Below, in pieces: positions 513-35,603 of a DNA stretch of 64,000 nt (positions within the stretch are counted from its first letter, which is position 1; each line of letters begins with the position of its first letter). Location: contig JAUYBI010000045.1 in NCBI GenBank assembly GCA_030693145.1, forward strand, positions 4,591-68,590, given 5' to 3'. The notes under the pieces are model-generated. The model did not search any database, had not been told where the DNA came from, and was given only the letters and a program-made list of their open reading frames with translations. Origin of the DNA: Candidatus Omnitrophota bacterium (GTDB lineage Bacteria > Omnitrophota > Gorgyraeia > Gygaellales > Profunditerraquicolaceae). The position numbers and the translations under genes are program-made.

Positions 513-1435
513 GCTCTTAATTTTCCGGTAAGCTGGCTTAAATTCTGTAGATTATTATCCAGCATATACTGCTCTAACCCAGCGATGATCTTCAGGCTTG
601 CTTGGGGGTCAATAAAATTTGCCGTTCCCACACTGACCGCCGCGGCTCCGGCGATAAAAAACTCTAAAGCACTTTCGGTATCCATTATACCACCCATACC
701 AATAATGGGAATCTGAATCTTATTATACGCCTCCCAAACCATCTTCACCGCCACCGGCCTGATTGCCGGCCCGCTTAAACCACCAACCCAGTTACCTAAT
801 TTAGGAATACGTTTATGCACATCTATACTCATACCGCCAAGCGTATTCACCAAAGCCAACGCATCCGTCCCTGCATTCTGCGCCGCCAGGGCGATTTCAG
901 TAATCGAAGCCACATTCGGCGACAACTTAGTAATTAAGCATTTTTCTGTAAGCTTGCGCGCCGCGCTGACTAATGCCAAGGTATCTGCGGCGTCCTGAGA
1001 AATTAGTTTATTCTTCTGCAAGTTCGGACAGGATATATTTAATTCGATTGCGGATACTTCGGGAATCCGGTCTAATCGTTTGACGAGAATGGCAAATTCA
1101 TCCGGGGTTTCTTCGGCGGCAATACTGACAATCACCGGAATGCCCAGCGACTTCAGAAAAGGAAGTTTCTCCTGGATAAACCTATCTATACCGGGATTTT
1201 CCAGGCCGATAGAATTAAGCATCCCGGCGGGGGTTTCACAGGTGCGCGGGGGGAGGTTTCCCTGACGCGCTTTCACCGTAATCGTTTTAGTAACAATTGC
1301 TCCCAATTTTCTTAAATCAATAAAATCCTCAAATTCCTGCGCGTAACCAAATGTCCCGGAGGCCACCATCACCGGATTTTTCAAATCCAGATTTCCTATT
1401 TTTACGCTTAAATTTGGCTGCTTTGGCTTTACCAT
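500..1435 (-). CDS. pyrD: Dihydroorotate dehydrogenase catalytic subunit (class 1B)
   Basis: The 311-aa protein MVKPKQPNLSVKIGNLDLKNPVMVASGTFGY... has the typical PyrD TIM-barrel motifs and overlaps pyrK by 7 nt. Confidence 0.9.
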   Translation of the reverse strand: MVKPKQPNLSVKIGNLDLKNPVMVASGTFGYAQEFEDFIDLRKLGAIVTKTITVKARQGNLPPRTCETPAGMLNSIGLENPGIDRFIQEKLPFLKSLGIPVIVSIAAEETPDEFAILVKRLDRIPEVSAIELNISCPNLQKNKLISQDAADTLALVSAARKLTEKCLITKLSPNVASITEIALAAQNAGTDALALVNTLGGMSIDVHKRIPKLGNWVGGLSGPAIRPVAVKMVWEAYNKIQIPIIGMGGIMDTESALEFFIAGAAAVSVGTANFIDPQASLKIIAGLEQYMLDNNLQNLSQLTGKLRACQD

Positions 1436-2205
1436 ATTAATTCCTCACCGGAGAAAACCGGGCCATCCTTACAAACAGTTTTATAACCGGCCTTGGTCGC
1501 AACCGCGCAGCCTAAACAAGCTCCCAATCCGCAAGCCATATGCTCCTCTAAAGAAAGCTGCGCGTTAATTTTATATTCATTAACAATCTCGGCAACAGCT
1601 TTTAACATCAAGTGCGGCCCACAGGAGAATACCTGCGTGGGCTTGGCCTGCTCTAAAATAATTTTGAACAAATCCGTAACCCTGCCCTTAAATCCCAGCG
1701 AACCGTCATCCGTAGCTAATTTCAATGCACAACCCAGCGCCTTAAATTCCCGGGTACACAGAATTTCTTTTTTTGTTCTGGCGCCGATTAAAACCAAAGG
1801 TTTGGTCTTTTTTAGTTTCTCGGCTAAAAAGGCCAGCGGCGCGACCCCTATCCCCCCGGCAATCAAAATATTTTTAACTCCCCTTGATTCCGCCGGGCGC
1901 GGATAAATAAAACCATTACCCAACGGGCCGATAACATCTAAAAATTCTCCGGGTTTTTTCCCGGACAAAGCCCGGGTACCTTCGCCGATAATTTCATAGA
2001 TAATCTTGACTTTGCCGGCTTTAGCTCCATGAATACTAATCGGCCTCCTCAATAAAGGCGCCGGCCCATCGGTTACTCTGATATTTACAAATTGGCCCGC
2101 AACCGCATACTTGGCAATCAGGCCGGATTCAAATTCTAAATGCCAATAATTCCCGCTCAGTCTTTGATTAGAAATTATTTTAGCTTTAATTTGCGCTGCT
2201 TTCAC
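1429..2205 (-). CDS. pyrK: Dihydroorotate dehydrogenase electron-transfer subunit (FAD/2Fe-2S)
   Basis: The 258-aa protein has a ferredoxin-reductase-like fold and a C-terminal CGLGACLGC cluster-binding cysteine motif, and sits immediately upstream of pyrD. Confidence 0.85.
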   Translation of the reverse strand: MKAAQIKAKIISNQRLSGNYWHLEFESGLIAKYAVAGQFVNIRVTDGPAPLLRRPISIHGAKAGKVKIIYEIIGEGTRALSGKKPGEFLDVIGPLGNGFIYPRPAESRGVKNILIAGGIGVAPLAFLAEKLKKTKPLVLIGARTKKEILCTREFKALGCALKLATDDGSLGFKGRVTDLFKIILEQAKPTQVFSCGPHLMLKAVAEIVNEYKINAQLSLEEHMACGLGACLGCAVATKAGYKTVCKDGPVFSGEELIW

Positions 2206-3880: not shown

Positions 3881-6800
3881 CTATTTGACCTTCTTACACT
3901 TCATTTTATGGTACTCTTGTAATGATTTCACGCCTAAATCTTTTTTAATCAACATCTCAATACCGTTTACCGTTGCCTGCGCTCCAAAAATCGTGGTGGT
4001 ATAAGGTATGTTATAAAGAACAACCTGGGAGCGAATTTTTACTTCATCCTGCCGCGGTATCCTGCCGGAAGGAGTATTAATCACCATCTGAATCTTGCCG
4101 TCTTTCATCAAATCCAGGATATTTGGCCGGCCTTCGTTAATTTTAGGCAGGACTTTAGCGGGTATATTATTTTTCTCCAGAACCGAAGCTGTGCCGCTAG
4201 AGGCAAAAATATTAAACCCTAGATCTTTGAGTTTCTTCGCAATAAAGGCGATGTCTCTTTTATCCCGGTCATGCACTGAGATAAAAACATTGCCGCTTTT
4301 GGGAACTTTTTGTCCTGCGGCAATCTGGCTTTTAATATAAGCGCTGGCAAAATCCATATCAATTCCCAGCACCTCACCGGTTGATTTCATCTCCGGGCCG
4401 AGCATCACATCTACACCCGGAAAACGGTTAAAAGGAAATACGGATTCTTTCACCGCCACATACGGCGGGATTACTTCTTCGGTAAAGCCCAAATCCTTAA
4501 GTTTCTTACCTAACATAACTTTTGTGGCCAACTTGGCTAAAGGCACTCCAATAACTTTAGAAACTAAAGGCACGGTACGGGAAGCGCGCGGGTTTACCTC
4601 TAACACATAGACCTTAGCGTCTTTAACCGCGTACTGCACATTCATTAAACCAATAATATTCAACTCTTTGGCTAAGCGATAGGAAGCCTCTCTTAGTTTT
4701 TTCAAAATATCCGGGCCCAGTGTATGCGTAGGTAAGGACATCGCCGCATCCCCTGAATGCACTCCCGCCTGTTCAATATGTTCCAAAATCCCGCCGATCA
4801 CAAAGGTTTCGCCGTCTCCGATTAAATCCACATCCACCTCAATAGCATCTTCTAAAAATTTATCAATCAATATCGGATGTTCGCCAGAAACTTCAGCGGC
4901 TTCCTGAATAAATTTTTCCAACAACTCTTCCTCATAAACAATCTCCATTGCCCGGCCGCCTAAAACATAGGAGGGCCTGACTAATACCGGATAGCCAATA
5001 TCCCTGGCGACTTTCTGCGCCTCGGCGAAAGTAAAAACCGTTCCGCTATTTGGCTGCAGGAGCCCTAACTTATCAATCAATTGTTTAAAACGCTTGCGGT
5101 CTTCGGCAATATCAATGTTTTCGGAGCTGGTGCCTAAAATATTTACTCCTGCCGCACGTAAAGCCACCGCCAGATTAATCGGGGTTTGCCCTCCAAACTG
5201 CACAATGACACCTAAGGGTTTTTCTACCTCCAGAATATTCATGATATCTTCAAAAGTCAGCGGTTCAAAATAGAGCCGGTCAGAAGTATCATAGTCCGTA
5301 GAAACCGTCTCCGGGTTACAATTAACCATAACACTATCTACCCCTTCTTCTTTAAGCGCATAGGCAGCGTGGCAACAGCAATAATCAAACTCAATGCCTT
5401 GGCCAATCCTGTTCGGGCCTCCTCCTAAGATTACCACTTTCTTATTTTTGCTTGGCCTGGCCTCATCTTTGGTCTCTTGAGTTGAATAAAAATAGGGCTG
5501 CTTGGCATTAAATTCTCCGGCGCAAGTATCCACTAATTTATACGCGGGCTTGACGCTGCTTTTTTTGCGTAGCTGTTTCACCTTTGCCTCCTTGGTATTC
5601 AAAAGAAAAGCAAGTTGAATATCAGAAAACCCGTCGGCCTTGGCTTGCGTTAATAATTCGGCAGGCATTTTCGGTTCCTCATCTACCAACTCATTCCTAT
5701 ATTGTTTAATTTTCTCCTCCAGCTCTACCAGTTGTTTCATATTCTGCAAAAACCAGCGGTCGATGCGGCTAAGTGCAAAAATTTCATCTATACTTAAACC
5801 TGCCTTTAACGCGTACCTTAAATAGAATAGCCTTTCATCATTGGGAATCCGGATCTTATCTTCAATCTGCTTAAATAAGAGCGCGTCCGGATTTTTAAGC
5901 ATGGCGTCGGTAATTTTATCTTTACCGTCTGCGCCAAAGCCAAAGCGTTTAATTTCCAGCGAGCGTATTCCTTTTTGCAAGGCCTCTTTAAAATTTCTAC
6001 CAATCGACATTGCTTCTCCTACCGCCTTCATGGAAGTATTCAAGGCCCTTTCGGCATGAGGGAATTTTTCGAAAGTAAACCGGCAAATTTTAAACACGCA
6101 ATAATCTATTGTCGGCTCAAAAAAGGAGGTAGTTTTACCGGTAACCTGGTTCATTACTTCCGGTAAAGTTAAACCTACGGCTAATTTGGTCGCTACCCGG
6201 GCAATCGGGAATCCCGTGGCTTTAGAGGCCAGGGCTGAAGAACGCGAAAGCCTGGGATTAACTTCGATAATCACAATCTTTCCGTTGTCCGGGTTCTGGC
6301 CAAACTGAATATTGGCTCCACCACCGGAAATACCAATCTTACGAATAATCTTTTTGCAAAGATAAACAAAGTCCGTGTACTCCTGAAGAGTAAGCGTCTG
6401 GGCAGGGGCCACCACAATGCTGTCTCCGGTATGCACCCCCATCGGATCAATATTTTCCATAGAGGTGATCATAATTACATTATCCACGCAATCGCGCATA
6501 ACCTCAAATTCAATCTCTTTCCAGCCTAAAACTGATTGCTCAACTAATACCTGATGTACCGGGCTGGTCTGGATTCCTTTGGATAACAGCGTCTCCAGCT
6601 CTTCTTGATTGTAAGCGATCCCCCCTCCGCTGCCGCCCAAACAATAAGCCGGCCGCAAGATTAAAGGAAAGCCAATCTCTAAACCTATTTTCATTCCTTC
6701 TTTAACCGATCTGGCAATACCGCTTTTAGGCATATCCACGCCGATCTCCTGCATGGCTTGCTTAAAAAGGTCCCGATCCTCAGCACAGGCAATCGCCTCT

Positions 6801-18172: not shown

Positions 18173-21100
18173 TTATGCTTCCTCTTCCGCGATTACCGGA
18201 GCGACACAGGAAACCCGGTCTTTGTCCTGCAACTTAATTAAGCGTACACCCTGAGACGAGCGGCCGGTTTCACGGATATCTTTGATCGCGCAGCGTAAAA
18301 ATATTCCATTCTGGGTAATAACCATCAGCTCATCTTTATCATTTACGGTTTTTAGATTTACTGCCTGGCCGTTTTTATCGGTAACCTTAATATTGATTAC
18401 CCCTTTACCTCCGCGGCTGGTTAACCGGTATTCATCGATGGTCGTGCGTTTTGCAAAACCTAACTCCGTAACCGTCAAGATAGTTGAAGCCTTTTGCGGA
18501 ACCACCATATCAATAACTTCATCTTTTTTAGCCAAAGATATCGCGCGCACGCCACGGGCGCCTCTGCCCATTTCCCGCACTTTTTCTTCAGAGAATCTTA
18601 TGGCCTTGCCCTGTTTGGTCCCAATAAGTAATTCCTGTTTTCCATCAGTCATCTCTACGCCAATTAATGCATCATCCTTATCTAAAGTAATCCCGATAAT
18701 GCCGCCTTTACGCGGATTACCGTAGGCTTCAAGTTTAGTTTTTTTGATCTGGCCTAACTTAGTGACCATGACCAAATATTTATCCGCGGAAAATTCTTTT
18801 ACCGGAATAGTCGAACTCACCTTAGCTGACTGCTCCATCTGCACCAGATTAACAATAGCTTTGCCCTTAGATATGCGGCTGGCCTGAGGAATTTCATAAA
18901 CCTTTAACCAGTGCACCTGTCCTTTATCCGTAAAAATAAGCAGGTAATCTTTGGTTGAAGCAACAAAAAGATGCTCGCTAAAATCTTCTTCTTTTAATTC
19001 CGCCCCCATTGCCCCGGTTCCTCCGCGCTTTTGTTTACGATAAGAGCTTACCGGCAAACGCTTAATATAACCACCGTGGCTGATGGTAACCACCACATCC
19101 TCGTCGGCAATTAAATCTTCCACTTCCAGCTCTTCTGCCTCTCCCACAATATCTGTGCGGCGGGAATCCCCATATTTTTTCATTAACCCCTGTAGCTCTT
19201 CTTTAATAATTGTTTCAATCTTTTTAAGTGAGCCAAGAATTGCCCGGCATTCTTCAATTTTCTTTAAAAGTTCCGCATACTCGGCATCAAGTTTATCACG
19301 CTCAAGAGCGGTTAAACGCTGTAACTGCATTTCCAGGATCGCCTGAGATTGAATCTCAGAAAGCTCAAACTCCTTCATTAAATTTAGCTTGGCTGCTTCC
19401 ACGCTCTTGGAAGTCTTAATTACCTGAATAATCCGGTCAATAAATTTGAGCGCGATTTTTAAGCCTTCTAAAATATGCGCGCGCTTTAAAGCTTTATCTA
19501 ATTCAAACTGCATGCGCCTGCGGATAACTACCCGGCGATGTTCGATAAAACAGTCTAATACCTGACGTAAATTTAAAACTTTTGGCCGGTTATCCACCAA
19601 GGCCAGCATAATAATCCCAAAGGTATTTTCTAATTGCGTATGCTTAAAAAGCTGATTTAAAACAATCTGGGATTCAATGTCGCGCTTAAGCTCAACGACA
19701 ATGCGCATACCTTCTTTATCGGATTCATCGCGAATATCGGATATACCTTCGATTTTTTTATCATCCACTAAATTGGCAATGGCCTCAATCAGTCCGGACT
19801 TTTGAACCTGATAAGGAATCTCAGTAAAGATAATCAGATCTTTGCCGTTCTTCTGGTGCTCCACAGTTGCCCGGGAGCGCACCAGAAGCTTGCCTCTTCC
19901 GGTGGTATATGCATCTTTAATTCCACCCTTGCCGCAAATTAAACCACCGGTAGGAAAATCCGGCCCTTTAATATAACGCATCAAATCTTTAATTTCTGCT
20001 TCAGGATTATCGAGCAAATAAATGATTGCATCGCAGACTTCGCTTAAATTATGCGGCGGTATATTTGTAGCCATACCGACGGCAATACCGCTGGAACCAT
20101 TAACCAAAAGATTAGGCAGAGTCGCCGGTAAAAGCAGAGGTTCTTTTAAAGAAGAATCAAAGTTTGGCCCAAAATTAACTGTTTCCTTGTCAATATCACC
20201 CAACATCTCGTCGCTAACCGCGGCCAGACGGGCCTCGGTATTATGACTTATAAATCCATTGGATACAAATGAGTGGCATGGACTATCCACTTTGATTGAA
20301 TAGACTCTCTTCTTACCGGCATCTTCTATCGAAACAATTTTATCAAAGATATATTTATTTTTTATCAAACTCTCAAATAAACAAATATCGTTTTTATCAA
20401 GAACTCTTCTTAGCCTAGGCCAGTATTTTTCTATTTTTGGATACCTATCAATGTTGTGTTTTTTTAGCCATTCTATGTTCCCCCAATATTTTCTCATGCA
20501 CCGAATGCTTTTTTTACGAATATAGTCGGCGATGTAGGGAATAAAATCTGTCTTAGACATAACCCAATCAGTTTTATTGCGATTACAAATATCTATTAGC
20601 CTTTCACGACTTTTCTTGGTAGCGAAATTTATTTGATTTTTAAATAAATCGAGATTATTGCGGCCCCTAATAAACAACCTAAAATAGTTTTTTTGCTTAT
20701 GGAATCTATACGATGAATCAATGCCAAACATTAGCAAAAAAACTTGTAAACCTTGAATCAATTTTCCACTGGTGGATATCAAGCTAACATCGGGGTTTCT
20801 TTTGCCAACACAAATACTACCATCTCCCTCCGCATAACCTTTTATAAATGCGGCGACTGATTTTTTCGAAGAAGAAAAAATTATATCTGGAATGGTTTTA
20901 TCATAAGCTCGCAATTGACGTAACCCTAGATTTTTCAAAAAATCTATAACATGCCTTGAATGAATTTCTAAATAAGTGCACTTCTTTTTCCCATAACCCA
21001 ATGGTTTTCTTACAAATTCATGCAGCCTGCAATCGGGGAATGCTCGCTGGAAACACAATTTAAAATCCCGCAGAAACTCTTTATCCCCATTACAGAATCC

Positions 21101-21928
21101 AATCTGTTCTTTGCTTATAGAACCTTCTGCAATTAGCGCTCCCAAAATAAAAGCCAGATCTGTATTCATAGCGCGAGGGAATTTATGATCCTGCCTTCTA
21201 TTTCGAAGTTCTGGATAAAATTTCTTTAATAAAGGTTCTCTTGAAGGGAATAACGAACCGCTTCTGCTGACTACGACAAAATCGCCATTTTCTATATTAT
21301 TTAATAGTTTCCAAACTAATTTTGGCTTTGTTCCATTACGTTGCCACGTTAAAATAGGATGATTCATGCTCCCGCATAAGTTAAAACCTCTAAAAGTAGT
21401 AATTTTTTTAGTTAAATGCTCTCCGGAATCAAACCATTTTGAAACATGATTTATCTTATTATTTAATGAAAGTACTCGAAAACCTGTTTTGGAATGACGA
21501 GACAGCTCGTCTATTCTTTGTAGCCCTTTATCTGTAACAATCAGAGTATCTCCGGTGACGCAATATCTCATCGCGGCAGCTGCATCCCCGTCGACCGATC
21601 CAAAATTTCCTTGGCCATCAACCAGCGGATAGCGCAAAGAAAAATCCTGCGCCATTCTTACCAGAGTGTCATAAATAGCAACATCGCCGTGCGGATGATA
21701 TTTGCCCATCGTTTCCCCGACGATGCGGGCGCATTTTTTATAGGGCTTGGAATGTTCCAGATTAAGTTCCCGCATGGCGTAAAGAATCCTCCGGTGCACG
21801 GGCTTTAAGCCATCGCGCACATCGGGCAGGGCGCGGCCAACAATTACGCTCATGGCATAATTTAGGTAGGAGTCCTTAACTTCATCCTCAATGTAAACCT
21901 GAATTATTTTTTCGTTGCGCGTGTACAT
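18173..21928 (-). CDS. gyrA: DNA gyrase subunit A with an in-frame intein
   Basis: The 1251-aa ORF has GyrA sequence (AAAAMRY...) through residue 122. It is then interrupted at the active-site Tyr by a 441-aa insert that begins CVTGDTLIV and ends FISHN, followed by [12 protein letters not shown]... The flanking halves sum to a normal GyrA of about 810 aa. Confidence 0.9.
20240..21562 (-). mobile_element. GyrA intein with a LAGLIDADG homing-endonuclease domain
   Basis: Splicing blocks are present: an N-terminal Cys (CVTGDTLIV), block B (NHPILT), and the C-terminal HN followed by a Thr +1 residue. Two LAGLIDADG-type motifs are present ([14 protein letters not shown] and [14 protein letters not shown]). 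The insert is AT-rich relative to the extein. Confidence 0.85.
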
Positions 21929-28316: not shown

Positions 28317-29846
28317 ATGGAAAAACGTTTAGTTTTAGCGATTGCCTTGTCACTTTTAGTACTCTTAAGTTGGTCCGCTTTAGCCCCAAAACCGCAACTT
28401 GTTGATAACAAAGTGGTTATAACAAATAAATCCCAATTAATAACATCTCCACAGGACATATCTTCTGCTGTAATTCCTTCAGCAGCACTGTCGCCGTCTG
28501 CAGATTTTGCCAGGGAGACGGTTAAATTTACTCAAGATAGTCGAGAAATAATTTTTAATTCAGCGACGGCGGCGATGGAGGATATAGTTTTTAAAGACGG
28601 TCCCGAACATCGTTTGCCACTTAAAGTAGGTTTTCTTATTGATGGCAACTCAGCTTTTAAGCAGCAAAACATAACCAAAGATTCCATTTCATTTATTTAT
28701 GAAGATCAAAATAAACGCGTCATTAAGAAATTTATTATTCCTAACAATAGTTATGTCATAGAGTTAGAGATACTGGTTAAAAATTTATCCTCCTCTTCTT
28801 TAGCACTCAAGCCACAATTAGTTTTAGGCCGGATGGACTTATCCCCAAAAAATACGCAATCGCGTTATCAGGATATTTTTCTTAGTAATAAAGAAAAAAC
28901 TATGCATCTTTCTGCGGGAAAGGATTTTAGTAGTTCGGATGTAAAGTTTATTGGCCTGCGTGATCAGTATTTTTGCACTATTGTTGAACCCGCCAATATG
29001 GCGGCCAGCGCTTACATCAAGAAAATTTCGCCCCAAGAATCTGAAGTAGGTTTATTTATGAATGAAACGACTTTGAAGCCCGGTGCTCAGATTGGACATT
29101 CATTTCGTATTTATTTGGGACCTCAAGATTTAAAGTCAATAAATAATGCTAAACCAGAATGGACATCAATTATATATTTTGGTACCTTTGATTTTATTGC
29201 GCAGATACTTTTACAATTATTGGGATTTTTCTATAGTTTAGTGCATAATTGGGGATCAGCAATTATTATATTAAGTATTGCGGTATATTTTATGCTTTTC
29301 CCTCTTTCCATAAAGCAAATGCGCTCAATGAAAGAAATGCAGCTTTTACAACCAAAAATTGAGGCTTTGCGCAAAGAACTCAAAGATAATCCGCAAAAAT
29401 TAAATAAAGAAATAATGGAACTGTATAAGGAGCACAAGGTTAATCCACTCGGTGGTTGTTTGCCGCTTTTATTGCAGATGCCTATATTTTTTGCTCTTTA
29501 TCAGGCATTAATCCGTTCAGTTGCTTTAAGAGGAGCGCATTTCCTGTGGATTAAAGATCTTTCTTCGCCGGATAAAGCCTTTGTTTTCAAAAACTCAATA
29601 CCATTTTTGGGTAATCAGGTAAATATTTTGCCAATTTTAATGGCTATCGGTATGTTTGTGCAGCAAAAGATTTCTATGGCAAAAGCAACCGGGGAAGCTG
29701 CTCAACAGCAAAAGATGATGTCGATTATCATGCCGATTATGTTTGGGGTAATCTTTTATCAGATGCCATCAGGGTTAGTGCTCTATTGGTTTGTTAATAG
29801 CTTGCTCATGCTCTGCTACCAATTTCGTATCAATGTCCAAAAATGA
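28317..29846 (+). CDS. yidC: Membrane protein insertase YidC
   Basis: The 509-aa protein has an N-terminal TM helix, a periplasmic domain and a conserved C-terminal 5-TM core. Confidence 0.9.
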   Translation: MEKRLVLAIALSLLVLLSWSALAPKPQLVDNKVVITNKSQLITSPQDISSAVIPSAALSPSADFARETVKFTQDSREIIFNSATAAMEDIVFKDGPEHRLPLKVGFLIDGNSAFKQQNITKDSISFIYEDQNKRVIKKFIIPNNSYVIELEILVKNLSSSSLALKPQLVLGRMDLSPKNTQSRYQDIFLSNKEKTMHLSAGKDFSSSDVKFIGLRDQYFCTIVEPANMAASAYIKKISPQESEVGLFMNETTLKPGAQIGHSFRIYLGPQDLKSINNAKPEWTSIIYFGTFDFIAQILLQLLGFFYSLVHNWGSAIIILSIAVYFMLFPLSIKQMRSMKEMQLLQPKIEALRKELKDNPQKLNKEIMELYKEHKVNPLGGCLPLLLQMPIFFALYQALIRSVALRGAHFLWIKDLSSPDKAFVFKNSIPFLGNQVNILPILMAIGMFVQQKISMAKATGEAAQQQKMMSIIMPIMFGVIFYQMPSGLVLYWFVNSLLMLCYQFRINVQK

Positions 29847-30034
29847 AAAAAGTAAAATATGTAGAAGTAGAGGGTAAGACAGTGGAAGAGGCTATTGAAA
29901 AGGCGTTGCAAGAACTAAAACTTCCCCGCAATCGCGTAAAGATAGAGAGTTTGTCTGAGGAGAAAAAGGGGCTTTTTGGCATGGCTGGAGCTAAGCCAGC
30001 TAAGGTGCGCGTAAGCGCGATCGGGGGCAAATAA
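29843..30034 (+). CDS. Jag_N-domain-only protein (truncated jag/khpB)
   Basis: A 63-aa ORF directly after yidC resembles the Jag N-terminal domain. No KH or R3H portion follows it. Confidence 0.45.
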   Translation: MKKVKYVEVEGKTVEEAIEKALQELKLPRNRVKIESLSEEKKGLFGMAGAKPAKVRVSAIGGK

Positions 30035-30038
30035 TTGC

Positions 30039-30067
30039 TTGACAAAAAGGCATAACTTAAGATAATA
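30039..30067 (+). promoter_or_regulatory. Near-consensus sigma70 promoter upstream of the free-standing LAGLIDADG gene
   Basis: TTGACA (30039-30044) is followed by a 16-17-nt spacer and GATAAT/ATAATA (30061-30067), about 60 nt upstream of the ATG at 30131. Confidence 0.5.
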
Positions 30068-30130
30068 GGATTTAGAAAGCGACAATGTTCCGCGTGAAAA
30101 AGTTACAGATAGAACACTTAAGAAAAAAAT

Positions 30131-30592
30131 ATGCTGGATCCGTGGTACGTAACAGGATTTGCTGATGGAGAAGCGGCTTTTACTTACTCTAGGGCAGGAG
30201 GTTCATTCGGTATATATTTTGCAATTAAGCAAAGGGAAGATAATCGACAGATAGTTGAAGAAATACATAATTTTTTCGGTGGCGTTGGATACATATATAG
30301 GGGCAAAGAGTCAAACGGTGCCCCTAAAAGCGGATTCTCAAAACCATATGCATATTACAGGGTAACTAAGAGTTCCGAACTACAAAAGATCGTCGAACAC
30401 TTTGACAAATATCCATTACAGAGCCAAAAGAAACACGAAGCTTATCAAGTCTGGCGCGAAATGGTTATCCATAAAAGAGACAACTATCGAAATATAGATT
30501 ATAATCGTCTTAGTGAGTTAGCAGGAAAGCTTTCTATTTTAAACTTACAAAGCCGAGCTTTTAAAATACACAAAAAAAGATGGGTAAAATAA
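30131..30592 (+). CDS. Free-standing LAGLIDADG-family homing endonuclease (single-motif, I-CreI-like)
   Basis: The 153-aa protein has an N-terminal LAGLIDADG motif (YVTGFADGEAAFTYS). It is inserted between the Jag_N ORF and parA, has its own promoter, and overlaps the parA start. Confidence 0.65.
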   Translation: MLDPWYVTGFADGEAAFTYSRAGGSFGIYFAIKQREDNRQIVEEIHNFFGGVGYIYRGKESNGAPKSGFSKPYAYYRVTKSSELQKIVEHFDKYPLQSQKKHEAYQVWREMVIHKRDNYRNIDYNRLSELAGKLSILNLQSRAFKIHKKRWVK

Positions 30593-31371
30593 TTGCAATT
30601 TGCAATCAGAAGGGGGGAGTAGGTAAAACTACTACCTCAATTAATCTTGCAGCTTACCTGGCTATGGCAGGTAAGAAGGTTATGCTCGTTGATTTAGATC
30701 CTCAGGCTAACGCTACTAGCGGTATTGGAGTCAATAAACACGACATCCAAAAAAGTACTTATCATATTCTACTCGAAGAAGCAAAGCTTATCGATATTTT
30801 ACAGAAAACCGAGATTGATAATCTTATGCTTGCTCCTTCTAATCTGGATTTAACCGGAGCTGAGGTGGAGTTGGTTGGAGCACTAGGCCGAGAGTATAGG
30901 TTAAAAAGGGCTTTACAACCTGAAAAAGATAATTATGATTTTATAATTATCGATTCCCCGCCATCATTGGGGTTACTCACTATTAATGGTTTATGTGCGG
31001 CTGATTCGGTAATTATACCTGTTCAGTGTGAATATTATGCCTTAGAGGGATTAACGCAACTGCATAATACTATTAGACTTGTGAAGGAAAACCTCAATCC
31101 ATCTTTAACCATCGAGGGTATACTGTTAACTATGGCAGATTTTCGTACCAATTTGACTAAAGAAGTGATCCAAGAGGCGCGGAACCATTTTCATGATAAG
31201 GTTTATATTACAGTAATTCCGAGAAATATCCGTTTAACTGAAGCTCCGAGTTTTGGCAAATCCATAGCTTCATACGATCGAGATTCTCTCGGAGCGCAGA
31301 AATATGAAGAGCTTAGTCGGGAAATATTAGGTTTACCTCTGAATTCAAAAATTGCAAAAGGAGCGCATTAA
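30580..31371 (+). CDS. parA: Chromosome partitioning ATPase ParA/Soj
   Basis: The 263-aa protein has the deviant Walker A motif KGGVGKTT. Confidence 0.92.
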   Translation: MGKIIAICNQKGGVGKTTTSINLAAYLAMAGKKVMLVDLDPQANATSGIGVNKHDIQKSTYHILLEEAKLIDILQKTEIDNLMLAPSNLDLTGAEVELVGALGREYRLKRALQPEKDNYDFIIIDSPPSLGLLTINGLCAADSVIIPVQCEYYALEGLTQLHNTIRLVKENLNPSLTIEGILLTMADFRTNLTKEVIQEARNHFHDKVYITVIPRNIRLTEAPSFGKSIASYDRDSLGAQKYEELSREILGLPLNSKIAKGAH

Positions 31372-32237
31372 TGGAAAGAAAAGCTTTAGGTAAAGGTCTC
31401 GGCGCATTAATTCCCGAAATAGCAGTTGATAGTACAAACCGTAGAAAAGAGGAGATTATTTATGTCCAATCTGAACAGATAAAACCCAACCCCTTTCAGC
31501 CGCGTGAAGATTTTGATCAGCAGAGCATTGAGGAACTAGCACAATCTATTAAAGAAAAAGGGGTTATTCAACCACTTTTGGTTAGACATCAAGGTGATAA
31601 CTATGAATTAATTGCCGGGGAAAGAAGACTTCGTGCAGCTAAAATCATGGGGCTCAAAGAGATACCAATTATTGTGCGAGATGTAAGCGACCAGGATTCA
31701 TTAGAACTAGCCTTAATTGAAAATGTCCAAAGAGAAGGATTAAATCCTATTGAAGAAGCGCATGCTTATCAACATCTGGTGGATAAGTTCCAGGTTACCC
31801 AGGAAAAGATAAGTGAGGTTTTAGGAAAATCCCGCGTTTCGATTACCAATACTTTGCGCCTGCTTAAGCTGCCGCATGAGATTCAAGGTGAAATGAAAAA
31901 AGGGCGCATTAGTTTTGCCCATGGCCGGGCTTTACTTGAAATCGAAGACGCCAATCATCAGCGCAGGCTTGCTCAAGACGTTATTTCCAAGGGGCTTTCG
32001 GTGCGCGAGTTAGAAAACTTGATTAAAAGTGTGCGGCCTAAATCTATAAAGCGCAATATCGGCCAGGGGCAACGTGAGCCGCTAGTGGCAATTTTAGAGG
32101 AGCAATTGCAACATGCCTTAGCCACTAAGGTGCGGATCAGCAAGAGAAAAAAACGCGGGCACATTAATATTGAATTTTATTCGCCCGAAGATCTGCAACG
32201 CATAGTTAACGTTATTAAAGGGACACCCCGCGCTTAG
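31371..32237 (+). CDS. parB: Chromosome partitioning protein ParB/Spo0J
   Basis: The 288-aa protein has a ParB N-domain (GERRLRAAK), an HTH and a C-terminal dimerisation domain. Confidence 0.92.
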   Translation: MERKALGKGLGALIPEIAVDSTNRRKEEIIYVQSEQIKPNPFQPREDFDQQSIEELAQSIKEKGVIQPLLVRHQGDNYELIAGERRLRAAKIMGLKEIPIIVRDVSDQDSLELALIENVQREGLNPIEEAHAYQHLVDKFQVTQEKISEVLGKSRVSITNTLRLLKLPHEIQGEMKKGRISFAHGRALLEIEDANHQRRLAQDVISKGLSVRELENLIKSVRPKSIKRNIGQGQREPLVAILEEQLQHALATKVRISKRKKRGHINIEFYSPEDLQRIVNVIKGTPRA

Positions 32238-34298: not shown

Positions 34299-34508
34299 AT
34301 GGATTATCAGGGAAGAGAAAAACTTTTAGACAAGAGTATGGGGTCAATTTATAAGCTGGTAATTTTGGCTTCTAAAAGGGCTTTAGAGATTGCCGAAGGC
34401 CAGCCGAAATTAGTGGCAGACGATGCTTCGGTAAAACCCTCGACCGTAGCCTTACATGAAATTGCTGCCGGTAAGATTGAGGCCAGGAAAATCAAGACAA
34501 AAGAGTAA
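34299..34508 (+). CDS. rpoZ: DNA-directed RNA polymerase subunit omega
   Basis: A 69-aa ORF following gmk with a conserved N-terminal RpoZ fold (GSIYKLVILASKRALEI). Confidence 0.8.
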   Translation: MDYQGREKLLDKSMGSIYKLVILASKRALEIAEGQPKLVADDASVKPSTVALHEIAAGKIEARKIKTKE

Positions 34509-35056
34509 TGGAAAAAGCCGAAAAAAATATCATCTTAGGCGTAACTGCCGGCATTGCTATTTACAAGTCCTGCGGCCTTATCCACAAGCTTAGAGCATGC
34601 GGGTTGGCAGTGCATGTGGTGATGACTAAAGAGGCGCAGGAATTAATTAAGCCGATTGTTTTTCAGAGCTTAAGCGGTAACCGGGTTTATGGCGGAGGCA
34701 TATTTGATGCGCCGGATACCTGGGATATTGAACATGTTGCTTTGGCGGCCAAAGCGGATTTAATTTTAATTGCTCCGGCAACGGCTAATATTATCGCCAA
34801 ACTTGCCGCCGGCATCTGCGATGATCTTTTAAGCTGTACGGTTTGCGCGAGTAAGGCTAAGGTCTTAATTGCACCGGCGATGAATGAAAATATGTATCAA
34901 AATAAAATAACGCAGAGTAATATCGCAAAATTAAAGAGTTGTGGTTATAAATTTATTCTACCACGTAAAGGCTTGCTGGCTTGCGGGGTGGTGGGGGTAG
35001 GTTGTTTAGCAGAGACTGAAGAGATTGTCAAGGAATCCAAGAAAATTTTAGAATAA
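34508..35056 (+). CDS. coaC: Phosphopantothenoylcysteine decarboxylase (CoaC flavoprotein domain only)
   Basis: A 182-aa flavoprotein fold (NIILGVTAGIAIYKS...) with no fused CoaB domain. Confidence 0.8.
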   Translation: MEKAEKNIILGVTAGIAIYKSCGLIHKLRACGLAVHVVMTKEAQELIKPIVFQSLSGNRVYGGGIFDAPDTWDIEHVALAAKADLILIAPATANIIAKLAAGICDDLLSCTVCASKAKVLIAPAMNENMYQNKITQSNIAKLKSCGYKFILPRKGLLACGVVGVGCLAETEEIVKESKKILE

Positions 35057-35278
35057 ATGGGTATTAAATATGCAGTAAATAGGGATTTTTTTAAAACATG
35101 GACTTCTGAAATGGCTTATGTTCTAGGTTTTATCGCTGCTGATGGTAGCCTAGAAAATACGCCTTATATGAGAGGTAAATATATAAGTATTTGTAGTGAA
35201 GATGGATTATATTTAGAGCGGAAATATAACAAATTTTTAGACTTTTTTGGATTATATCCTAAGTGGCAGGAATACAAT
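35057..35278 (+). pseudogene. Remnant of a LAGLIDADG homing endonuclease
   Basis: The ORF starts at the ATG abutting the coaC stop, encodes a LAGLIDADG block (AYVLGFIAADGSL), and runs into tRNA-Cys after about 73 codons. This is too short for a functional LAGLIDADG domain. Confidence 0.45.
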
Positions 35279-35351
35279 GGCGTGGTACCCAAGCGGTTAA
35301 GGGAGTTGTCTGCAAAACAACTATTCACCGGTTCGAGTCCGGTCCACGCCT
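35279..35351 (+). tRNA. tRNA-Cys (anticodon GCA)
   Basis: The sequence GGCGTGGTACCCAAGCGGTTAAGGGAGTTGTCTGCAAAACAACTATTCACCGGTTCGAGTCCGGTCCACGCCT has a perfect 7-bp acceptor stem, the anticodon loop CTGCAAA and a U73 discriminator. Confidence 0.85.
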
Positions 35352-35386
35352 TAAATTAGCGTTGAACGATAACCAAAGGTTAGATT

Positions 35387-35470
35387 GCCGGGGTGTCGAA
35401 ATTGGTATACGATGCGGACTTAAAATCCGCCGTCCGCAAGGGCATGAGGGTTCGATTCCCTCCTCCGGCA
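35387..35470 (+). tRNA. tRNA-Leu (anticodon TAA), class II with a long variable arm
   Basis: The sequence GCCGGGGTGTCGAAATTGGTATACGATGCGGACTTAAAATCCGCCGTCCGCAAGGGCATGAGGGTTCGATTCCCTCCTCCGGCA has the anticodon loop CTTAAAA and carries no intron. Confidence 0.8.
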
Positions 35471-35482
35471 CTTAAAAATTTT

Positions 35483-35556
35483 GGGCTCATAGCTCAGTTG
35501 GTTAGAGCGTTTCCTTGACATGGAAAAGGCCGGGGGTCCGAATCCTCCTGGGCCCA
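35483..35556 (+). tRNA. tRNA-Val (anticodon GAC)
   Basis: The sequence GGGCTCATAGCTCAGTTGGTTAGAGCGTTTCCTTGACATGGAAAAGGCCGGGGGTCCGAATCCTCCTGGGCCCA has the anticodon loop TTGACAT. Confidence 0.85.
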
Positions 35557-35603
35557 TTTTGGTTTATTAGTTTGATAATCAGAGAACTCAGAAACTAACA
35601 ATT

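Follow-up and report, generated by a model that had tools for sequence, protein, structure and literature searches.

A free-standing LAGLIDADG homing-endonuclease gene at the head of the parAB operon in Omnitrophota, with chromosomal parS as its probable target

We analyzed a stretch of 64,000 nucleotides (nt) from a Candidatus Omnitrophota bacterium (contig JAUYBI010000045.1; the whole stretch is called "the window" here), in which a gene for a LAGLIDADG homing endonuclease stands immediately upstream of parA. The origin-proximal cluster of the window comprises dnaA (minus strand), yidD, yidC, a stand-alone Jag_N gene (jagN below), the endonuclease open reading frame (ORF), parA and parB, followed by ndk and yicC. 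On the plus strand, jagN (29843..30034) encodes 63 amino acids (aa; Pfam PF14804, 74.9 bits), the endonuclease gene (30131..30592) encodes 153 aa from its ATG to a TAA (Pfam PF00961), parA (30580..31371) matches the Pfam families AAA_31, CbiA and ParA, and parB (31371..32237, from the ORF list) encodes the protein expected to bind parS, the short palindromic centromere of most bacterial chromosomes. ParB_N and HTH_ParB domains are both present in the parB orthologues of two related loci (L013 and L014). The endonuclease ORF is the first gene of the parAB operon, and its stop codon (30590-30592) lies beyond the parA ATG (30580), a 13-nt overlap that points to translational coupling. Between jagN and the ORF lie a putative sigma-70-type promoter of the endonuclease–parA–parB operon, recognized by sequence match (plus strand; -35 TTGACA at 30039-30044, -10 GATAAT at 30061-30066), and two parS-like sites: site A (30086..30101, TGTTCCGCGTGAAAAA), a crippled parS with the right arm GAAAAA instead of GGAACA, and site B (30101..30116, AGTTAC-AGAT-AGAACA), a parS-derived palindrome whose central CG is lost. 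Apart from this site A/B leader region, no other parS-like site was found in the 64-kb window. These leader sites, which the initial annotation of this DNA did not mention, are the main point of what follows.

The ORF is genuine and intact, and it constitutes a free-standing gene for a LAGLIDADG homing endonuclease. Its product matches the LAGLIDADG_1 profile (PF00961; 54.7 bits, E 2e-14, cut-off 23.1) over positions 2-101 of 102; this is the sole Pfam family found in the ORF at E<=1, with no match to LAGLIDADG_3 (PF14528) and no intein domain. A search of 29700-30800 gave no Rfam match at E<=1, and thus no sign of a group I or group II intron around the gene; start and stop codons are the gene's own, and five stop codons lie between it and jagN. 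The initial annotation had read this ORF as a single-motif LAGLIDADG gene that overlaps the start of parA and is borne by neither an intron nor an intein, and the domain match, the 153-aa ORF, the overlap, the Rfam null and the separate start and stop bear out that reading. Two other readings of the leader were rejected: the five intervening stop codons dispose of a jagN–endonuclease read-through fusion, although the two share a frame, and a structured RNA or riboswitch was ruled out by the same absence of Rfam matches at E<=1.

The LAGLIDADG motif YVTGFADGEAAF occupies residues 6-17 and follows the pattern GF[ACS]DGEA, with D12, G13 and E14 invariant in 120/120 best homologues and in all 25 related loci that carry the gene ("filled" loci below). 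These 120 homologues share 62-100% identity with the window protein, and almost all have a length of 149 or 153 aa; their alignment shows no variation at G9, D12, G13, E14, Q34 and K101 and 98% conservation at K100. For an identical protein there is an NCBI entry, 'LAGLIDADG family homing endonuclease [Candidatus Omnitrophota bacterium]'. An AlphaFold2 (AF2) model (pLDDT 73.5; H4-8, E15-22, E25-33, H36-48, E54-57, E74-78, H81-93) shows the predicted alpha-beta-beta-alpha-beta-beta-alpha LAGLIDADG core fold, and a Foldseek search with it against the PDB returned 125 matches at E<=1e-3; all 50 among the matches listed are LAGLIDADG enzymes, led by I-OnuI, I-AabMI, I-GzeII and the 170-residue I-TnaI. 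All complete orthologous ORFs in Omnitrophota loci are intact (22/22), and the ratio of nonsynonymous to synonymous substitution (dN/dS) between endonuclease orthologues, 0.04-0.09, indicates purifying selection and is the same as for dnaA, parA and parB. The protein thus looks like a working enzyme, with activity predicted from conservation and fold.

Comparison with characterized enzymes places this protein between two groups. I-CreI, I-MsoI, I-CeuI and I-TnaI likewise have one motif, about 150-170 aa and the same fold (I-TnaI, 5gkk, TM 0.70 on target). Enzymes of this single-motif class act as homodimers on near-palindromic targets of about 22 bp, which they cut at the central 4 bp to leave 3' overhangs of 4 nt. 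The best PDB matches in both sequence and structure, however, are to the I-OnuI family (I-OnuI, I-LtrI, I-SmaMI, I-GzeII, I-CpaMI, I-AabMI), in which the motif Glu is catalytic: E14 aligns with this residue, and the match is to the N-terminal domain (E ~1e-12). Members of that family are two-domain monomers of about 300 aa that reside in fungal mitochondrial introns and have asymmetric targets, whereas the window protein corresponds to one half of such an enzyme. Beyond the orthologous group, the closest relatives are ORFs in 23S rRNA introns of Omnitrophota and Parcubacteria. Some of these ORFs share the N-terminus MLDPWYVTG, and it is plausible, judging from this shared start, that such ORFs are ancestors of the free-standing family. 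LAGLIDADG ORFs were observed in Omnitrophota 23S rRNA genes of L011 (1-2718) and L012 (2975-7433), the latter with two such ORFs and one Rfam group I intron match at 5013-5712.

Upstream of the cassette, the short jagN gene shares with Jag/KhpB (EloR) the Jag_N domain and the position after yidC; KH and R3H domains, in contrast, are missing from it across the whole clade, both in loci that have the endonuclease and in those that do not. A Jag_N search returned 470 clusters, and the best 120 of 470 are all Jag_N-only proteins of 60-73 aa from Omnitrophota; neither the window product nor any of these 120 listed homologues has KH or R3H domains, and the upstream gene scores 58.8 against the NCBIfam Jag_EloR model (NF041568), whose cut-off is 145. 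As alleles without the endonuclease ("empty" alleles) encode the same short Jag_N as filled ones, the cassette did not truncate jag, and the Jag_N-only gene is a clade-wide feature of these Omnitrophota. The initial annotation was thus right that only Jag_N is encoded here; nothing was truncated, and its proposal that the cassette inserted into, or replaced, the 3' part of jag did not hold. This corrects the annotation-level idea of a truncated jag in these Omnitrophota. The further idea that the endonuclease takes over missing KH/R3H functions of Jag was rejected on the same ground, the empty alleles being equally Jag_N-only.

A similar correction applies to the promoter. The TTGACA-N16-GATAAT sequence at 30039-30066 matches at 11/12 positions, is the best promoter-like match in a 9-kb scan, and is kept in 22/23 filled and 51/59 empty orthologous leaders. 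Because it is kept across both kinds of leader, the match exceeds chance, and because it is also present in empty alleles, it is best read as the resident parAB promoter and not as the endonuclease's own. The "own near-consensus promoter" initially assigned to the gene therefore exists as a sequence but is not private to it. Both this promoter and the 3' end of jagN fall inside the block that, as described next, is exchanged together with the endonuclease gene.

Related loci were collected from Jag_N homologues on long contigs, followed by a metagenome scan with the Jag_N alignment. Among 92 related jagN–parA loci, 25 are filled and 67 are empty (73% without the gene). The initial annotation had described an insertion between jagN and parA, which would be an old resident gene if relatives all had it there and no empty allele existed; the junction comparison upheld the insertion and recovered empty alleles in number. 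The same gene order, dnaA/yidD-yidC-jagN-endonuclease-parA-parB, recurs in nine species-level genomes, and filled and empty loci are interleaved throughout a yidC+parA tree of 57 loci, such that the minimum number of state changes (15 on 57 taxa) equals the mean for shuffled labels (15.0). Empty alleles are found among close relatives: the flanks of empty L016 are 86-91% identical at the nucleotide level to the window and to filled L001, matching the closeness of the window to L001.

Conflicts between gene and host trees add to this pattern. Specifically, the host tree unites L001, L024 and the window (100%), whereas in the gene tree L024 falls outside the crown group (92.5%) and L032 joins L001 and the window (94%). 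Likewise, L050 pairs with L058 in the host tree (100%) and with L002 and L068 in the gene tree (100%), and the L002–L050 distance is 0.027 for the gene vs. 0.149 for the host. Sliding-window identity of L050 against L058 and L002 delimits an exchanged tract that begins at about -190 and stops at about +460, counted from the endonuclease ATG, and in which non-sister hosts are 94-99% identical, while in L024 a block from -150 to +450 is 55-75% identical to its host sisters (the window and L001) between flanks of 88-95%. The right edge of the L024 block is exactly the parA ATG; the left edge of the cassette is variable, about 150-190 nt upstream of the endonuclease ATG. These tracts identify the mobile unit as a cassette of about 600 bp, made up of the jagN 3' end, the promoter with its leader, and the ORF. 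Carried over by homology from L050 and L024, where its edges were mapped, the cassette spans approximately 29980..30579 (plus strand) in the window. We are highly confident that this is a mobile, free-standing homing-endonuclease cassette.

A single acquisition at the root of the clade, followed by vertical inheritance with many deletions and no current mobility, would make this an old resident gene and would account for the conserved order in nine species-level genomes and for gene distances that track host distances overall (r = 0.89-0.94), and one empty allele with a filled-type leader (L030, below) could represent a precise loss. About 15 independent losses would be needed on the 57 taxa, however, the tree conflicts are well supported and involve a 650-bp tract 94-99% identical in non-sister hosts, and deletion would leave behind the crippled sites A and B, not the perfect parS sites seen in empty alleles that branch among filled ones. 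We consider this history very improbable. A search for a vehicle gave no phage match, one plasmid match at 33% and only 28% matches on viral contigs, and a phage or plasmid vector was rejected on these same database searches.

What distinguishes filled from empty leaders is the state of parS. We compared leaders with the consensus tGTT(T/C)CnCGnG(A/G)AACa, a 16-bp palindrome near parAB and the origin, and scored the exact core GTT[CT]CnCGnG[GA]AAC. In empty alleles, the stretch from the promoter to the parA ATG contains one to three parS palindromes (TGTTCCnCGnGGAACA) that are perfect or nearly so, many of them perfect 16-mers, TGTTCCCCGGGGAACA and TGTTCCACGTGGAACA included; the empty alleles L016 / L014 have site 1, AAATGTTCCACGTGGAACATTT, and site 2, GGAATGTTCCCCGGGGAACAATTT. 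These sites match the chromosomal parS consensus and are predicted ParB sites, and TGTTCCACGTGGAACA is identical to parS2 and parS3, experimentally studied chromosomal parS sites of P. aeruginosa (PMC4368675). The exact core occurs in 39/59 distinct empty leaders (57/59 within one mismatch) and in 0/23 distinct filled leaders, a difference with Fisher p = 7.5e-9 that ignores the shared ancestry of the cassette leader.

In all filled alleles, the position of an intact parS in empty alleles is taken by site A, with the consensus TGTTCCnCGTG[AG]AAA[AT]; the right arm of this site is destroyed, with the left arm and the CG centre left intact. Window site A matches 14/16 positions of the parS consensus, and site B, without the CG centre, likewise falls short of the full consensus. 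Site B directly adjoins site A, and in the window 14 nt separate its end from the endonuclease ATG; across filled leaders the ORF starts at least 14 nt after it. The arms of site B are kept while its four central bases are free to vary, with nCGn in 0/22 filled leaders, and its counterpart in GC-rich relatives is AAAATGTTCC-(C/T)ATG-G(G/A)AACATTTT. An alternative parsing, in which one parS is split by a 15-nt insertion (TGTTC-N21-GAACA), was superseded by abutting sites A and B once 22 filled leaders and the GC-rich relatives were aligned. When empty L016 is compared with filled L001, the ORF stands in place of the parS farther from the promoter and of the last 22 nt before the parA ATG of the empty allele. 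That the arms of site B persist at 66-69% GC while its centre drifts suggests continued binding, either by the endonuclease, with the site as an operator, or by ParB; we propose that site B may be an uncleavable copy of the target or an operator.

Three loci depart from the common leader layout. L030 (965-1055) is an empty jagN–parA allele with a single parS-like site that has a filled-type right arm, TGTTCCACGTGGAAAT, and a leader end (...AAAATATG) that resembles the start of the endonuclease gene; it may have arisen by precise deletion of the ORF, which would make it an empty allele presumably resistant to cleavage. Filled alleles L075 (leader ~214 nt) and L101 (2160-2400) have GC-rich, hairpin-like insertions of about 100-200 nt in the jagN–endonuclease spacer (e.g., ctgcctgcccgccatctggcaggcgggcctgccggcaggcagg in L101), which may be small mobile repeats.

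The association with parS extends to a second phylum. In a high-GC member of the Kofleriaceae (Myxococcota; L010), a relative of the gene with an internal deletion lies between bioD and a UDG-family gene. This copy is not near yidC, jag or parA and is preceded by a leader of the same A/B type (TGTTCCCCGTG-AAAAAGTGCTTGCC-GGAACA). Further Kofleriaceae alleles were found through a search with the BioD of L010, the closest homologues being inspected. In filled loci (L096-L098), bioD (230 aa) is followed by a 140-aa LAGLIDADG_1 gene and UDG, and in empty ones (L099, L100) bioD (215-218 aa) stands directly next to UDG, with a spacer of 30-38 bp that contains an intact parS (CGTTCCACGGGGAACA in L099, CGTTCCACGGGAAACA in L100). 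Filled L010, L096 and L102 have the A/B leader and then the endonuclease gene, and site A of L102 lies 18 nt from the bioD stop, the same distance as the native parS in L100. Two of the four filled Kofleriaceae copies look inactive from their sequences, the catalytic Glu being changed to Gln in L096 and residues ~13-75 being lost in L010; such decay is expected of a selfish endonuclease gene after fixation. Just upstream of parS in the empty alleles, an imperfect inverted repeat of the type GGTTCC-N8-GGAACC overlaps the bioD stop (L099 3140-3165, L100 3145-3170).

Relatives at 41-48% identity occupy still other positions: bioD-endonuclease-rsmG (L105), parA, endonuclease and rsmG (L103, L104), and beside a GH63 glycosidase gene (L106, L107). 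In all three of these further contexts (L103, L105, L106), parS-derived palindromes with dead centres lie beside the ORF, such as AAAATGTTCC-TATG-GGAACATTTT, TGTTTC-AATT-GGAACA and TGTTCC-ACAT-GGAACG. The residues GTFS or ETFS, with which several database proteins of this subgroup start, are encoded by GGAACATTTTC; as this is the right arm of site B, those genes too follow the same DNA element. Beside the endonuclease gene of L103, parA (828-1604, minus strand) is called as two fragments of 66 aa and 148 aa, which suggests a frameshift or an assembly error.

Taken together, parS sites are occupied in two unrelated loci in two phyla, and a parS-type palindrome is common to all contexts and intact in the recovered empty alleles. 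Homing endonuclease genes insert at or beside the sequence that they cut, and carriers are protected by changes in that sequence. We therefore favour, with reasonable though far from complete confidence, a homing-endonuclease cassette, active now or until very recently, with chromosomal parS as its target, as read from the position of the gene; parS is the only feature common to the Omnitrophota and Kofleriaceae empty sites. Single-motif LAGLIDADG proteins bind near-palindromes as homodimers and are sensitive to the central four bp. The endonuclease would thus act as a homodimer, like other single-motif members of the family, recognize parS (TGTTCCnCGnGGAACA, probably with a few flanking bases) in cassette-free genomes and cut its centre. 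Repair of the break from a cassette-bearing copy would then swap the intact parS for the cassette's site A (dead right arm), site B (dead centre) and ORF, such that sites A and B would be immune copies of the target. In Omnitrophota the ORF would land exactly before the parA start codon, a placement that would let it be transcribed from the parAB promoter and probably be translationally coupled to parA. Homodimerization, cleavage, parS recognition, immunity through sites A and B, and the route of DNA entry are what we infer from these sequences; the initial cross-phylum integration cannot have used flanking homology.

Several observations weigh against this interpretation. The recognition sequence is deduced from gene position, and the Omnitrophota ORF lies not within parS but 14 nt downstream of site B, with about 40 nt replaced, so that on the Omnitrophota locus alone the junction between leader and parA start could also be the target. 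The parS difference between filled and empty leaders takes no account of the common descent of cassette leaders, and the metagenomic contigs may be strain consensus sequences. An enzyme that cuts every parS would require cassette genomes to be free of intact parS throughout, and the check covered 64 kb of one such genome. The gene tree follows the host tree at deep levels (r = 0.91), and transfer therefore appears limited to relatives. Finally, with dN/dS as low as in housekeeping genes and degenerate copies in 0 of the 22 Omnitrophota loci, constraint is stronger than a classical cycle of invasion, decay and loss leads one to expect, and could reflect a host-level role.

The first of these points leads to a mobile gene whose target is the leader/parA 5' junction that the ORF splits, with the parS changes merely hitch-hiking. 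In its favour, the ORF sits exactly at the parA ATG, where the exchanged block stops sharply on its right side; the sequence that a homing endonuclease cuts is usually the one that its gene interrupts; and the 5' end of parA, with its Walker A motif, is highly conserved. Against it, the Kofleriaceae relatives lie between bioD and UDG with no parA nearby, and parS is all that their empty site has in common with the Omnitrophota one. In three other contexts the gene is bordered by parS copies with dead centres, filled and empty alleles do not differ consistently over the first 30 nt of parA, and the junction has no palindromic symmetry, although a single-motif enzyme should favour a near-palindrome. 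On this balance, we regard the junction as a distinctly unlikely target.

The last point leads to a domesticated LAGLIDADG protein with a role in ParABS or at the origin—for example, a regulator that binds site B, or a nuclease that processes parS-proximal DNA—maintained by host-level selection, its polymorphism being ordinary recombination and loss. Position as first gene of the parAB operon with overlapping stop and start, dN/dS of 0.04-0.09 with no pseudogenes among 22 loci, and sites A and B kept even in GC-rich hosts would all fit such a role. There is also the precedent of WhiA, a LAGLIDADG-derived regulator of Gram-positive bacteria that is linked to chromosome segregation, genes for which are among its targets (PMC3781837). 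Yet 73% of related loci do without the gene, its distribution on the host tree is indistinguishable from random, it is exchanged horizontally as a discrete block, the Kofleriaceae copies sit at parS sites unlinked to parAB and decay there, and the catalytic Glu is invariant in Omnitrophota, unlike in WhiA-type proteins. We hold domestication to be quite improbable, and both it and old residence were dropped as the main explanation in view of the empty alleles, the random distribution and the gene/host conflicts.

A bolder version of the parS interpretation deserves mention, though we think it unlikely to be right. Here the endonuclease family parasitizes the centromere: it would cut intact parS, make a self-immune variant of it and, expressed in cassette-bearing chromosomes through the parAB promoter, be able to destroy incoming or competing replicons with host-type parS. 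The element would then be a gene drive combined with incompatibility or defence against relatives' DNA, plasmids and phages, and ParB occupancy would possibly control access to the site.

Two other candidates for LAGLIDADG elements lie in the window. The gyrA gene (18173-21928, minus strand, 1250 aa) contains an intein at residues 129-562 with an Intein_splicing domain (PF14890) and two LAGLIDADG_3 stretches (PF14528), which confirms the LAGLIDADG domain initially ascribed to this intein and places it in a different family from the LAGLIDADG_1 gene of the parA leader. A 100-aa ORF after coaC (35057-35359, plus strand), with the LAGLIDADG-like motif YVLGFIAADGSL, has no Pfam match even at E<=10, a probability of 0.2% by hhalign against the endonuclease family and, as its sole other support, a match at E=0.04 to the motif region of I-MsoI; its 3' third overlaps tRNA-Cys (35279-35351), the first of a Cys-Leu-Val tRNA cluster (35279-35557). 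This ORF is probably no gene, at best it would be a remnant in advanced decay, and it was rejected as a relative on the Pfam, hhalign and tRNA evidence. The initial annotation had counted a second LAGLIDADG remnant here and three such elements within 15 kb, a tally that fails with this ORF unsupported and the gyrA intein assigned to another family. The preceding gene (34508-35056, plus strand) encodes a CoaC-type flavoprotein (PF02441) that stands alone at 182 aa with no CoaBC fusion, as does a 181-aa counterpart in a related contig.

Unlike the enzymes of rRNA group I introns, this gene lies outside introns as the first cistron of a host operon, and its presumed target is a non-coding protein-binding site, parS, instead of rRNA or coding sequence. 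In behaviour the element resembles the Seg/Mob genes of T-even phages, which home without introns ('intronless homing'): they lie between conserved genes, are polymorphic among relatives and spread with co-conversion of their flanks. Their carriers' own sites are protected by sequence differences, and the cassette described here is comparable. Seg/Mob enzymes, however, are of the GIY-YIG or HNH type, reside in phage genomes and cut inside coding genes, whereas this is a LAGLIDADG protein on a bacterial chromosome with a centromere site as its likely target. WhiA differs further: it has two degenerate LAGLIDADG domains and a helix-turn-helix, has no catalytic acidic residues and occurs throughout its clades by vertical descent, in contrast to the single domain, invariant catalytic Glu and patchy, horizontally exchanged distribution seen here. 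The searchable literature yielded no link of homing endonucleases to parS or to Omnitrophota, WhiA being the closest item, and parS as a homing-endonuclease target is unreported within the literature searched.

To our knowledge, known homing endonucleases invade conserved coding or rRNA sequences. If our interpretation is correct, a parS-homing family would therefore represent a new target class for homing endonucleases, and a compact enzyme of about 150 aa, homodimeric and with one or a few cleavage sites close to most bacterial origins, would make a useful meganuclease tool. It would raise the questions of how ParB loading survives a crippled parS and whether ParB shields parS from cleavage. 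It would also mean that a cis-acting segregation site can be parasitized, and the near-universal nature of that target would explain how one endonuclease family could cross phyla.

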